A DNA stretch of 64,000 nucleotides from Pseudomonadota bacterium (GCA_040756035.1 JBFLZV010000002.1:16124-80123), one strand, 5' to 3'; counted from the stretch's first letter, positions 17,814 to 60,738 are shown. Made by a program: numbers and translations. Notes: generated by a model from the letters alone, not told the origin.

Positions 17814-17890
17814 GGTGATAAGCAACGGGTGATGAGTAATGAGTGATGGGTGATGTTTTACTCATTACCGTTTACTCATTACCCATCACC
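17814..17890. repeat. Purine-unit/pyrimidine-unit palindromic element (family 2, copy A; GGTGAT/GAGTAA units)
   Basis: GGGTGATGAGTAATGAGTGATGGGTGATG ... TTACTCATTACCGTTTACTCATTACCCATCACC, between the dat start and the dacA stop. Confidence 0.75.
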
Positions 17891-17891
17891 G

Positions 17892-19082
17892 TTAACTAAA
17901 CCACAACTTGATCGTATCGATTAAGCGCCGCCACCAACTGCCTTGCGCCACGTCTTGCAGCGCGATCAGCGGGCGCGTGAGCAGCACCTTGTCGTTCAGG
18001 CTGATCTTCACGACGCCGTGCGTGGCGCCCTTGCGCGCCGGCGCGATCACCGATTTTTCGATTTCCATGGCGGCCTTGAGATTTTGGTACTGGCCGCGCG
18101 GCACGGTAATGTACAAGTCTTCGCCGATGCCGAGCGCCAGGCTCGGGCTCGCGCCCTTCCACACGCGCACTGTGGACAGCGGTGTCGCGGCGGCGTACAG
18201 GCGCTGCGTTTCGTAGGTGCGGAAGCCGTAGTTGAGCAGCGCCTGGCTTTCGTCGGCGCGCACATTTTCACTCTTGGTGCCGAGCACCACGGAGATGAGG
18301 CGCATACCGTCGCGCTGCGCCGAGGCGACCAAACAGTAGCCCGCCGATTCGGTGTGGCCGGTTTTTATGCCGTCCACGTTGCCGTCGCGCCACAATAATT
18401 TATTACGGTTGTATTGCTTGATGCCGTTGTAGGCGAATTCCTTCAGCGAGTACCACTTATAGTATTCCGGAAATTCGCGGATCATGGCGCGCGCCAGTTT
18501 GCCCATGTCGCGCGCGGTGATATACAGCTCCGGGTCGGGCAGGCCGGTGCTGTTGGTGAAGTGGCTGTGTTCCATGCCGAGTTCCTTGGCGTATTGATTC
18601 ATCAACGCGGCAAAGCCTTCCTCGCTGCCCGCCACGTGCTCGGCCAGTGCGACGGTCGCGTCGTTGCCGGATTGCACGATCATGCCCTTGAGCAAGTCCT
18701 CCACGCTGACTTGCGTGCCGACTTGCACAAAACTGCGCGAGCCGCCGGTGCGCCACGCCTTTTCGCTGACCGTGATCTTGTCGGCGAGCTGCATCTTGCC
18801 GGCGCCTAGCGCCTTGAACACCGCGTAGGCGGTCATGAGCTTGGTCAGGCTCGCCGGTTCCATGCGCACGTCGGCGTTGGATTCGGCCAGCACCTCGCCG
18901 CTGTAAAAATCTTGCAATAAATAAGCGCGCGCCGTGCTGGTGGGCGGCGGTGGCGTCGGCTGCTGCGGCGCCGCGGCAACCGGCGCGGTGGCCTTGGGAG
19001 GGGCGGACTGCGGCGCGTCCGCGGCGGCGTGCGCGTTGGCTACACAGAACGCGAGAAGTACAGCAAAGAAATGATGTTTCAT
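17892..19082 (-). CDS. dacA: D-alanyl-D-alanine carboxypeptidase (PBP5/6 family)
   Basis: Has SxxK (ASLTKLM), SGN and KTG motifs. A signal peptide begins at MKHHFFAVLL (ATG at 19082). Confidence 0.9.
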   Translation of the reverse strand: MKHHFFAVLLAFCVANAHAAADAPQSAPPKATAPVAAAPQQPTPPPPTSTARAYLLQDFYSGEVLAESNADVRMEPASLTKLMTAYAVFKALGAGKMQLADKITVSEKAWRTGGSRSFVQVGTQVSVEDLLKGMIVQSGNDATVALAEHVAGSEEGFAALMNQYAKELGMEHSHFTNSTGLPDPELYITARDMGKLARAMIREFPEYYKWYSLKEFAYNGIKQYNRNKLLWRDGNVDGIKTGHTESAGYCLVASAQRDGMRLISVVLGTKSENVRADESQALLNYGFRTYETQRLYAAATPLSTVRVWKGASPSLALGIGEDLYITVPRGQYQNLKAAMEIEKSVIAPARKGATHGVVKISLNDKVLLTRPLIALQDVAQGSWWRRLIDTIKLWFS

Positions 19083-19125
19083 GGCGATGAACAACCTTAG
19101 TGCTGAATAGCCGTTGCTAAAAAAT

Positions 19126-19247
19126 CCAACGCAAAGACGCAAATAAAGTAACGAGTTGCAAGTGACAAGATAAAAATCAATCTCTATGCCTTTTCTTGTA
19201 ACTTGTCACTTGTTACTTGAAACTGTTTTTCGGCGTTTTTGCGTTGG
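19126..19247. mobile_element. Composite small element: TIRs CCAACGCAAAGACGC / GCGTTTTTGCGTTGG enclose a family-3 ACAAGT-unit hairpin. Lies in the dacA upstream region.
   Basis: The TIRs match at 14 of 15 positions and are related to the sucC-sucD MITE TIR. The inner arms are GTTGCAAGTGACAAG (19155-19169) and CTTGTAACTTGTCACTTGTTACTTG (19195-19219). Confidence 0.6.
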
Positions 19248-19309
19248 ATTTTTTGGAAATTAAGGACTTGTAACATCGTAGCGACGCTATCATAGTGGCC
19301 GCGCGCGTA

Positions 19310-57905: not shown

Positions 57906-57977
57906 GACGATTCCTTAAAAATTTTAGAGAGGATACCTTGCCTACCGCCTTGTACCCTGTCAAGCAACGGGGCCCGG

Positions 57978-58005
57978 TTGAATCCCGCGCGCCCAGCCCC
58001 CATAT
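57978..58005 (+). promoter_or_regulatory. Sigma-32 (RpoH) heat-shock promoter of clpB
   Basis: TTGAAT-N14-CCCCATAT read directly. This matches the sigma-32 consensus CTTGAAA-N13-15-CCCCATnT and lies 28 nt upstream of the clpB ATG. Confidence 0.7.
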
Positions 58006-58032
58006 TCATCTGAACTACTAGAGGACACCGCC

Positions 58033-60636
58033 ATGCGCATGGATAAACTCACCGCCAAATTTCAAACCGCCCTGGCCGAGGCGCAAAGCCTCGCGGTCGG
58101 ACGCGACCATCAATTCATCGAACCCGTGCACCTGATGACCGCGTTGCTCGATCAGGAGGGCGGCACGGTGCGCCACCTGCTCACGCAGGCCGACGTCAAC
58201 GTCAACCGTTTGCGCTCGCAGCTCGGCGAAGCCTTGGATCGGCTGCCCAAAGTAGAGGGCATCGCGGGCGACGTGCACATCTCCAACGACCTGGCGCGGC
58301 TGCTCAACGTCACCGACAAGCTCGCGCAGCAGCGCAAGGATCAATACATTTCCAGTGAATTGTTCGTGCTCGCCGCGCTCGAGGACAAGGGCGCGCTCGG
58401 CGAGCTGCTGCGCAAGAGCGGCGCTTCCAAGGGCGCGCTGGAGAAGGCCATTGAACACATGCGCGGCGGCCAGCGCATCGACGATCCCAACGCCGAGGAG
58501 CAGCGTCAGGCGTTGGAGAAATACACCATCGACCTCACCGAGCGCGCCGAGCAAGGCAAGCTCGATCCGGTGATCGGGCGCGACGACGAAATCCGCCGCA
58601 CCATCCAAGTGTTACAGCGCCGCACCAAAAATAATCCGGTGCTGATCGGCGAGCCGGGCGTGGGCAAGACCGCCATCGTGGAGGGTTTGGCGCAGCGCAT
58701 CGTCAACGGCGAGGTGCCGGAGGGCCTCAAGGGCAAGCGCCTGCTTGCGCTCGACATGGGCGCGCTGATCGCCGGCGCCAAATACCGCGGCGAATTCGAG
58801 GAGCGCCTCAAGGGTGTGCTCAACGACCTGTCCAAGCAGGAAGGCCAAATCATTCTGTTCATCGACGAGTTGCACACCATGGTCGGCGCCGGCAAGGCCG
58901 AAGGCGCAATGGACGCCGGCAACATGCTGAAGCCCGCGCTGGCGCGCGGCGAGCTGCACTGCGTGGGCGCGACCACGCTGGACGAATACCGCAAATACAT
59001 CGAGAAAGACGCCGCGCTGGAGCGGCGCTTCCAGAAAGTATTGGTAAACGAACCGAGCGTGGAAGACACCATCGCCATCCTGCGCGGCCTCAAGGAAAAA
59101 TACGAAGTGCACCACGGCGTGGATATCACCGATTCGGCCATCATCGCCGCCGCCACGCTCTCGCACCGCTACATCTCCGATCGACAACTGCCGGACAAAG
59201 CCATCGATCTCATCGACGAGGCGGCGAGCCGCATCCGCATGGAAATCGATTCCAAACCCGAGGCCATGGACAAGCTCGAACGCCGCCTCATTCAACTGAA
59301 GATCGAGCGCGAGGCGCTGAAAAAGGAAACCGACGAGGCGTCCAAAAAGCGTTTGGAAAATTTGCAAAACGAAATCGACAAACTGGAACGCGACTATTCC
59401 GAGCTGGAGGAAATCTGGAAATCGGAAAAGGCCGCGCTGCAAGGCACGCAACACATCAAGGAGGCGCTGGATCGCGCGCGCATGGAAATGGAAACCGCGC
59501 GCCGCGCCGGCGACTTGGCGCGCATGTCGGAATTGCAGTACGGGCGCATCCCGGAGTTGCAAAAGCAACTCGACATGGCGGCGCAGGCCGAGATGCAGGA
59601 GAAAAAATTATTGCGCAACGCGGTGACGCAGGAAGAAATCGCGGAAGTGGTGTCCAAGTGGACCGGTATTCCGGTTTCGAAAATGCTCGAGGGCGAGCGC
59701 GAAAAACTGTTGCGCATGGAAGAGGCGCTGCACGCGCGCGTGGTCGGCCAGGATGAGGCCGTCAAGGCGGTGTCCGACGCCATACGCCGTTCGCGCGCGG
59801 GATTGTCCGACCCCAACCGCCCCAACGGCTCATTCCTGTTCCTCGGTCCCACCGGCGTGGGCAAGACCGAACTGTGTAAGGCGCTTGCGGAATTTCTGTT
59901 CGACACCGATGAAGCGATGGTGCGCATCGATATGTCGGAATTCATGGAAAAGCACTCGGTGGCGCGGCTCATCGGCGCGCCACCCGGCTACGTCGGTTAC
60001 GAAGAGGGCGGCTATCTCACCGAGGCGGTGCGGCGCAAGCCTTACTCCGTGATTCTGCTCGACGAAGTGGAGAAAGCGCACCACGACGTGTTCAACGTGC
60101 TGCTGCAAGTGCTGGACGACGGCCGCCTCACCGACGGCCAGGGCCGCACCGTGGATTTCCGCAACACCGTGATCGTCATGACCTCCAACCTCGGCTCGCA
60201 GGTCATCCAGGAAATGGCTGGCGAGGAAAATTACGCGCGCATGAAGGCGGCGGTGATGGACATCGTGGCGAGCCATTTCCGCCCCGAGTTCATCAACCGC
60301 ATCGACGAGGTGGTGGTGTTCCACCCGCTGGCGCGCGAACAAATCCACGCCATCGCCAATATCCAGATCGATTATCTGCGCAAGCGTCTGCGCGAGCGCG
60401 ACATGCACCTGGAAATCAGCGAGGCGGCGCTCGATCACCTGGGCGCGGCGGGTTTCGATCCGGTCTATGGCGCGCGCCCGCTGAAGCGCGCCATTCAACA
60501 AACCATCGAAAACCCGTTGGCGCAGCACATCCTGTCCGGCCACTTTATGCCCGGCGACACCATCCGCGTCGATGCGCTGGACGGACGGTTGGTATTCCGT
60601 AAAGGCGTCAGCGCAAAAGTCGCCGCCTCGGCATAA
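58033..60636 (+). CDS. clpB: Chaperone/disaggregase ClpB
   Basis: 867 aa with a Clp N-domain, two AAA+ modules ([16 protein letters not shown]) and a middle coiled-coil domain. Confidence 0.97.
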
Positions 60637-60637
60637 T

Positions 60638-60738
60638 GGTGAGGAGTGAGGAGAAAGGTGTGAGGGGTAAAAAAAACCATGCTCCCTAATCAAGGGATTT
60701 CCTGCTCACTCCTCACTCCTTACTCCTCACGCCTCACC
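60638..60738. repeat. Family 2 palindromic element, copy H, between clpB and the HDOD gene
   Basis: The outer 16 bp, GGTGAGGAGTGAGGAG (60638-60653), pair with CTCCTCACGCCTCACC (60723-60738) with one mismatch. The inner arms show the same unit structure. Confidence 0.75.

Follow-up and report, generated by a model that had tools for sequence, protein, structure and literature searches.

Heptamer-built hairpins that begin at stop codons in a gammaproteobacterial contig, and what they may do

The subject here is a family of intergenic hairpin elements, built from short tandem repeats, in the 64,000-nucleotide stretch GCA_040756035.1 JBFLZV010000002.1:16124-80123 of a 'Pseudomonadota bacterium'; this whole stretch is referred to as the window. 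Gene calls were taken, together with Pfam, from the public contig JBMOPP010000002.1 of assembly GCA_049322975.1, a metagenome-assembled genome (MAG) of 61% GC that also carries the name 'Pseudomonadota bacterium'. The gene content is gammaproteobacterial (pilSR, sucCD, gatCAB, mreBCD, rluD-pgeF and clpB), and the nearest RluD relatives in very large protein collections are just 72-74% identical. An earlier note, made from the sequence alone, had described eight such elements, each laid out as a purine array, a spacer and a complementary pyrimidine array. All eight are present with that layout and are labelled e1-e8 here, and the Pfam gene calls confirm that they sit between cistrons (gatC|gatA, sucD|nadE) and at gene ends:

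e1, 17814-17890: fills the spacer from the stop of a dacA-like gene (17892) to the start of an aminotransferase gene (17806), both on the - strand; GTGATG/GTAATG dialect, period 7; -39.1 kcal/mol, z -8.1; upstream stop 1 nt and downstream start 7 nt away.
e2, 27357-27424: between gatC (stop 27349-27351) and gatA (ATG 27432); arms 27355-27378 and 27395-27418; -33.7 kcal/mol, z -6.7; 5 nt past the stop and 7 nt before the ATG.
e3, 40206-40292: sucD|nadE; its first GTGAGG unit supplies the sucD stop through its TGA (40207-40209), after the SucD C-terminus ..EKLSKK; -29.9 kcal/mol, z -4.0.
e4, 43088-43153: between the bamD stop (43157) and a nitroreductase start (43067), both on the - strand; -36.9 kcal/mol, z -6.4; gap to the stop 3 nt.
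e5, 45847-45940: pgeF|zip; a small hairpin (CAGCCTTCGGCTG) is nested inside; shares 45849-45887 with the end of pgeF, whose final 13 residues and stop (TGA, 45885-45887) it encodes; -50.0 kcal/mol, z -5.5.
e6, 46768-46855: between convergent zip (stop 46765-46767) and cydB; GTGATG dialect; 3 purine vs ~10 pyrimidine units, CCATCAC x7.6 by Tandem Repeats Finder (TRF); -37.1 kcal/mol on the - strand; cydB has its final ~8 codons and its stop inside the element (46828-46855), CydB ending in ..GNESMSDE.
e7, 53129-53212: between the stop of a CBS-domain gene (53220) and an epimerase start (53113), both on the - strand; -31.9 kcal/mol, z -4.2; gap to the stop 7 nt.
e8, 60638-60738: between clpB (stop 60634-60636) and an HDOD-domain gene (ATG 60756); 31-nt arms, 87% complementary; -53.8 kcal/mol, z -7.5; gap to the stop 1 nt.

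Each element is an imperfect palindrome in which the purine array comes 5' and its complement 3' whichever strand is read, the complement array lying 7-60 nt past the purine array in 8/8 elements. Clusters of at least three GTRAKG or CMTYAC units per 40 nt are confined within the window to e1-e8, and the two-unit pattern GTRAKGNGTRAKG (GTRAKG-N-GTRAKG) has 23 matches vs 0.07 +/- 0.26 expected from dinucleotide shuffles. The units had been described as 6-9-mers; instead TRF, used for the unit period, gives a period of 7 (or 14) in all eight elements, and the repeat unit is the heptamer N-GT(G/A)A(G/T)G. It occurs in two dialects, GTGAGG/GTAAGG in e2-e5, e7 and e8, and GTGATG/GTAATG in e1 and e6. 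Shared architecture together with divergent primary sequence marks a real family, as proposed: mean column identity among the copies is 63%, the loops are not alignable, and in a comparison of the eight elements no two were close in sequence. A conserved loop or common core was considered and dropped, just a loose A-run and then CC being found past the purine arm.

Strong folds are predicted for either strand (-25 to -56 kcal/mol); z lies between -4.0 and -8.1, and none of the 200 shuffles made for each element folds as well as the element itself. Imperfect stems had been put at 20-35 bp; the stems are real, and their minimum-free-energy pairs number 19-33 for the + strand and 18-39 for the reverse complement. 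Within the window the better fold lies on the sense strand in 4 elements and on the antisense strand in 3. A nested 'UUCG tetraloop' was considered as evidence for an RNA function and rejected; the mini-hairpins concerned have a UUC or GAA triloop on a stem of 5 bp and lie either way round with respect to the genes. The units contain GG at most (GTGAGG, GTAAGG, GTGATG), without the G3-4 runs of the G-quadruplex-forming heptamer class, and they are 7 nt long and contiguous, without the spacers of a CRISPR array. At the gathering threshold Rfam matched only a tRNA in the window and nothing in six element-rich viral loci; a tRNA gene lies at 13648-13720 on the + strand.

All eight elements are anchored to the end of a gene. 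The upstream stop lies 0-7 nt before the element or is overlapped by it in 8/8 cases, the downstream start follows after 7-38 nt, and the elements are nearer to the upstream than to the downstream open reading frame (ORF). The starts of gatA and of the aminotransferase gene (27425-27434 and 17804-17813) lie 7 nt past a very stable hairpin, with no Shine-Dalgarno (SD) sequence between. Co-directional genes flank seven elements and convergent genes one (zip|cydB), and the seven divergent spacers of the window have none. The annotated C-termini of PgeF and CydB are encoded by the repeat and not by conserved gene sequence; e.g. the PgeF tail is GVRGVRQPSAGEA before its stop, and homologues stop at ..IWL(R/D) plus 0-6 residues.

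The same architecture recurs widely outside the window, a spread of the GTGAGG vocabulary through phage and metagenome contigs, across phyla, that the earlier note had overlooked. A scan of IMG/VR with a pattern of three GTRAGG units gave at least 120 matches, and 32 distinct hairpins of the same architecture were found among the matches listed, often several per contig and in both dialects. A hairpin-shaped pattern gave at least 120 matches in the JGI metagenomes, where by a rough estimate less than 1 is expected by chance; among the matches listed, the carrier contigs have 41-69% GC and ordinary chromosomal genes. When the neighbours in these metagenome loci were typed from dominant ORFs of at least 100 aa, again among the matches listed, 25 were convergent, 30 co-directional and 3 divergent. 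Of 99 cases among the matches listed, the ORF ended 4 nt before the start of the array (-4) in 23, at -11 in 9 and at -18 in 7, i.e. with the stop codon in unit 1, 2 or 3, and at 0-10 nt in a further 18/99. Viral loci show a matching position pattern, and solitary arrays behave likewise.

The anchoring goes with a systematic distribution of stop codons. In e1-e8 there are 34 stop triplets in the 5' halves vs 2 in the 3' halves, and all three frames are closed in 15/16 element-strands, usually within 20 nt. Nearly every purine unit contains TGA or TAA, though other unit positions vary, and since 7 is not a multiple of 3, one such triplet per 7-nt unit puts stops in all three frames; because this holds on both strands, a ribosome entering from either side would be released within about three units. 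The purine arm comes first on both strands 8:0 in the window and 32:0 in viral loci among the matches listed (the 32 being collected without regard to the partner arm), 12:1 among GTGRAG units, and 5:0 when 1.5 Mb were scanned without regard to the unit. Period 7, the anchoring to stop codons, the three-frame stops and this polarity had all escaped the earlier note. The sole heptamer-like stem of reversed polarity in the window is a hairpin at 49270-49363 (CCCTCATCCCTCTTCC / GGAAGAGGGATGAGGG), with the pyrimidine arm first and about two units per arm.

On this basis the account favoured here, tentatively and at somewhat short of an even chance, is that the elements are 3'-end or intercistronic stem-loops that have been remodelled by heptamer slippage and whose purine arm closes the three frames. 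Their anatomy and positional rules are as observed above; that they act as RNA stem-loops at 3' ends or between cistrons is suggested by their position and by analogy with REP and other 3' hairpins. The elements would be transcribed as 3' untranslated region or intercistronic spacer and would fold into a 20-35 bp stem-loop that lacks a U-tract. Such a stem-loop could be a barrier to 3'-5' exonucleases, may with stems of 20-35 bp be a site for RNase III or other processing, would leave no naked RNA past the stop codon, and might be a leaky pause site for transcription. As to origin, unequal arms and unit turnover point to 7-nt replication slippage combined with template switching between the arms, which would replace units quickly and keep the hairpin. 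A frame-closing purine arm accounts for the ability of the elements to overlap gene ends, for the quantised ORF ends of this unit type and, in part, for the tolerance of a purine-first palindrome from both sides.

Because the elements sit at gene ends, it could be proposed that they are transcription terminators or attenuators that need no U-tract, a reading that would be supported by the 3'-end position, the enrichment between convergent genes and the very stable stems. It also gains from the fact that canonical terminator-like sites are barely above shuffles in the region scanned (28 vs 18.8 +/- 5.0). Terminator calling over 40001-60000, which covers e3-e7 and leaves e1, e2 and e8 outside, placed none on the outer stems, and no T-run follows the stem of any of the eight elements, so that the statement of the earlier note that they are not classical intrinsic terminators is upheld. 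However, apart from the missing U-tract, 7/8 elements lie inside apparent operons whose downstream genes need to be expressed (gatC-gatA-gatB, sucD-nadE), and the genome encodes Rho; the presence of the rho gene in the window (2561-3817, - strand) means that Rho-dependent termination is open to the organism. Termination by the elements themselves is accordingly rated very improbable.

The stops in all frames of the 5' arm, together with the stop codons that the elements supply to genes, can be read in another way, as parts of a translation device in which the purine arm would be a fail-safe stop and an SD-like holder or re-recruiter of the 30S subunit (GGAG, AAGGAG, GGTGAT) and the hairpin would couple the next cistron. 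In keeping with this, gatA and the aminotransferase gene start 7 nt past an element and have no SD of their own, and in the phage contig L201 elements fill the whole spacers between consecutive genes. Against it, 43% of the members with both neighbours called, among the matches listed, lie between convergent genes and have no downstream cistron, the GTAATG and AGTNACA dialects are poor SD matches, and stop-less heptamer foldbacks show the same layout. Translational coupling is therefore regarded as quite improbable.

A reading nearer to the favoured one keeps the slippage and discards the function: 3' hairpins would be hot spots for 7-nt slippage, the arrays would be neutral by-products that add no function, and the vocabulary would reflect mutational or compositional bias. 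Heptamer repeats are indeed the commonest intergenic repeats in prokaryotes and their function is unexplained (PMC6344855; Mrazek 2007, as cited in PMC4679880), and slippage was the hypothesis of Mrazek 2007 as PMC4679880 cites it. Arms can also be very unequal, as in e6 and in Halomonas koreensis (13 vs 2-3 units), unrelated GC-rich hairpins are found at the same places in syntenic relatives, and several other heptamer arrays give at least 120 matches, or nearly so, in viral contigs, a poorly informative comparison, two of the control heptamer patterns overlapping the same arrays in another phase. Slippage alone, however, would not be expected to give a strict polarity (32:0 among the matches listed, 12:1 and 5:0) or quantised ORF ends with an excess at the first unit (23 vs 9 and 7 among the matches listed), nor to preserve TGA or TAA in almost all purine units when other positions vary. 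This by-product reading is rated, like the translational-coupling and terminator readings, as less likely; it is doubtful rather than improbable.

Comparison with relatives bears on both the turnover and the possible mobility of the elements. The elements are identical in population contigs of the same organism, the sole difference being one G in a G-run beside e4, and among them there is no gain or loss of units and no presence/absence variation. Gene order pilRS-sucCD-nadE-glnB-nitroreductase-bamD|rluD-pgeF-zip is conserved in the nearest relatives, and in the fully syntenic ones the elements are absent and unrelated GC-rich sequence with hairpins occupies the same spacers; the elements are thus lineage-specific. 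The earlier note had pointed to orthologous spacers as a place for empty sites and target-site features: neither alignable empty sites nor target-site features were found, insertion boundaries not being definable because the spacers of relatives with 72-74% RluD identity cannot be aligned.

In 80 further loci (1.36 Mb), taken from other Gammaproteobacteria with a few Betaproteobacteria included, a GTGAGG-type element was found only in Halomonas getboli, after pgeF. The pgeF|clpB spacer of this genus holds (CCCCTCG)13 with a short G-rich partner in H. koreensis, (CAGCCCG)12 in H. cerina, (CTTCCTT)8 in an uncultured Halomonas and CCTCAC-type units in H. getboli, and none in two other Halomonas species; the very unequal arms of H. 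koreensis have 13 units vs 2-3. Four units at one locus indicate rapid change in situ. These arrays (L006:11686-11870, L009:11716-11880, L012:11713-11860 and L003:11700-11780) each lie just upstream of a conserved CTTGA..CCATATCAA motif before clpB. One metagenome carrier contig belongs to the Gemmataceae (its ClpX is 89% identical to that of named members), and no elements were found in 20 kb of Tuwongella immobilis or in 17.8 kb from a further MAG of the Gemmataceae. Occurrence is thus patchy, crosses phyla and includes phage contigs. A BLAST search of phage and plasmid collections with e8 gave no match, the low-complexity filter probably masking the arrays.

Such a distribution could be that of selfish, non-autonomous mobile DNA of a foldback, REPIN-like or MITE (miniature inverted-repeat transposable element) type, spread within and between genomes including those of phages. 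Insertions would then survive only where they are harmless, in the handful of bases separating a stop from the next ribosome-binding site, and three-frame stops in both orientations would make insertion into the last codons harmless. One vocabulary at 8 loci that is absent from fully syntenic relatives is what this would predict, and so is the patchy, phylum-crossing occurrence (gammaproteobacterial MAG, Halomonas getboli, Gemmataceae contig and IMG/VR, two Gemmataceae samples lacking it); the native C-termini and stops of pgeF and cydB have given way to e5 and e6, the orientation is random relative to transcription with no RNA strand bias, and some viral contigs (L133, L111) have near-identical paired copies. 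On the other hand, no two copies in the window are close and their loops cannot be aligned, the four units at the one Halomonas locus speak for change in situ, and the population contigs show neither presence/absence nor unit variation. MITE features are also missing, with no direct repeats or target-site duplications at the eight copies, no insertion sequence seen in the contig examined and no transposase, RAYT included, called in ~80 kb of it. The mobile-DNA reading is accordingly rated somewhat unlikely.

A number of points weigh against the favoured account of slippage-remodelled stem-loops with a frame-closing arm, and some of them bring mobility back in. The purine-first polarity is seen also in the stop-less units GTGGAGG and GGGGCGA, so that frame closure is not the sole cause of the rule and leaves the polarity of these units unexplained. 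Across the family the sense RNA is the more stable in 22 and the antisense in 16 of 41 members (p=0.79), i.e. there is no bias, and as the sense strand folds no better than the antisense, no G-U signature points to selection acting on the RNA. A -34 kcal/mol hairpin 7 nt before gatA, with no SD, looks costly for an essential operon. Finally, purely local slippage does not explain one vocabulary at eight loci, and for that reason a mobile-element component stays a serious rival.

The eight elements are not the full set of such hairpins in the window; AGTNACA and ACGCAAAG foldbacks were overlooked in the earlier note:

19114-19259: foldback in the rlpA|dacA spacer, with outer arms of ACGCAAAG type and inner arms of AGTNACA heptamers (19141-19175 / 19196-19230).
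20162-20340: AGTTACA/AGTAACA/AGTGACA array, GC-rich core and complementary ACTTGAT/ACTTGTA units; spans the mltB|rlpA spacer and enters the 3' end of mltB.
39135-39318: 8-mers (ACGCAAAG)n ... (TCTTTGCG)n with a 118-nt core and 33-nt arms of 88%; begins at the sucC stop codon.
53689-53769: AGTNACA heptamers; overlaps the 3' end of a hydrolase gene (stop 53718).

The AGTNACA pattern has 12 matches in the window vs 0.2 expected, and two further members lie in the flanking contig (L659:14857-14949 and L658:17130-17165). These foldbacks likewise begin at or near stop codons, and one is nested in another at 19114-19259. A separate family of five REP-like copies is headed by GTAG and reads GTAG(G/A)TTGGGGT (GTAGGTTGGGGT) .. 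ACCCCAAC, then an A-run:

28896-28926, + strand: REP-like copy.
30423-30508, + strand: REP-like copy.
31828-31858, + strand: REP-like copy.
32451-32481, - strand: REP-like copy.
34396-34426, - strand: REP-like copy.

Two of these sit in the gatA|gatB and gatB|corA spacers. Since the GTAG-headed family co-exists with the heptamer hairpins as a separate family, the latter are not the REPs of this genome, and with nothing found in Rfam the earlier exclusion of REP, BIME, ERIC, Correia, SMAG and CRISPR repeats is sound.

Other repeats were noted in passing. The divergent bamD|rluD spacer has a perfect 23-bp palindrome at 44043-44093 (ACTAAGAAGAAACAAAATAAGCG and its complement, with a 5-nt loop), and the long spacer after nrdB (L659:16069-16693) repeats AAAAAGGGGTCGCG several times in direct orientation and also contains a short ORF rich in lysine. 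In the viral contigs L116, L134, L195, L115, L562, L612 and L636 (24-47% GC where measured) GTGAGG/GTGGAGG arrays form the inverted ends of elements with AT-rich cores of ~100 nt, in two to three near-identical copies per contig; these look more like a true MITE than the window elements do.

Stop-anchored heptamer arrays might also be a general design that has been used convergently and that explains part of the period-7 excess of prokaryotes, which is considered unlikely. In such a design a unit length coprime with 3 and one T-purine-purine stop per unit would rotate the stop through the three frames, and a purine-first palindrome would halt ribosomes from either side, shielding the 3' stem-loop and the neighbouring gene. 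Beyond this, the strict purine-first order may reflect repeat formation that is itself polar. With eight copies in 64 kb the window offers a clean and dense example of the heptamer-repeat class, and comparison with phage and metagenome contigs yields three falsifiable rules: that the array starts at a stop, that the 5' arm has stops in all frames on both strands, and that the purine arm comes first. If upheld genome-wide, these rules would make a vague repeat class testable, and annotation would gain from knowing that gene ends such as those of pgeF and cydB are set by a repeat.

Mori et al. 2019 (PMC6344855) describe tandem heptamers as the most abundant intergenic repeats of prokaryotes and say that nothing hints at what they do. 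A Xanthomonas genome has ~185 heptamer repeats of GGGAATC type, and 70-75 of these form convergent inverted pairs; ~90% are intergenic, at a mean of 28 nt from the upstream vs 160 nt from the downstream ORF, mostly between co-directional or convergent genes, most are transcribed, and length and sequence vary among close species (Rehm et al. 2015, PMC4692102). Similar GGGGAYT repeats are found in Nostoc (PMC4692102). The Xanthomonas (GGGAATC)n / (GGGANTN)n repeats and the window elements are alike in period 7, convergent inverted arrays, intergenic position nearer to the upstream ORF and unexplained function, and the convergent orientation is read here as the G-rich arm coming first on both strands. 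They differ in that the Xanthomonas unit has G3 runs, with G-quadruplex potential, and no stop codon, whereas the window units have GG only and TGA or TAA in nearly all; the window elements moreover often supply the stop of a gene and occur in another lineage and in phage contigs.

The cyanobacterial STRR heptamers (GGGGA(C/T)T, Nostoc PCC 7120) are likewise intergenic and tandem, with several unit families per genome and some inverted stem-loops. Their units, phylum and low-GC host are different, and stop-codon anchoring is not reported for them. They are said to have been originally described by Mazel et al. in 1990.

REP, BIME and REPIN sequences and GTAG-tagged palindromes are also abundant extragenic imperfect palindromes at gene 3' ends in either orientation, and are thought to stabilise the upstream mRNA (PMC3116915, PMC3733652, PMC2817692). 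In REPs the GT(A/G)G head is conserved, there is one short stem, identity between copies is high, and a RAYT (Y1 transposase) gene flanked by the repeats is associated. Unlike these, the window elements lack the GT(A/G)G head, are built of tandem units and are widely divergent between copies. Liang, Rudd and Deutscher reportedly found in 2015 that REPs close to stop codons affect translation termination.

The TAACTGA repeats of marine Beggiatoaceae, cyanobacteria and Bacteroidetes (MacGregor 2015, PMC4679880) are intergenic heptamers with TAA and TGA in the unit and a patchy, cross-phylum distribution like that of the window elements; they differ in being direct only (with one indirect case), in lying just upstream of start codons and in having no hairpin partner. 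Within the papers searched by sequence string there were no GTGAGG-type arrays, only chance primer matches. The elements belong, as the earlier note had not seen, to inverted intergenic heptamers, a recognised but unexplained class (PMC4692102, PMC6344855); what is new within that class is the sequence of the unit and its anchoring to stop codons.

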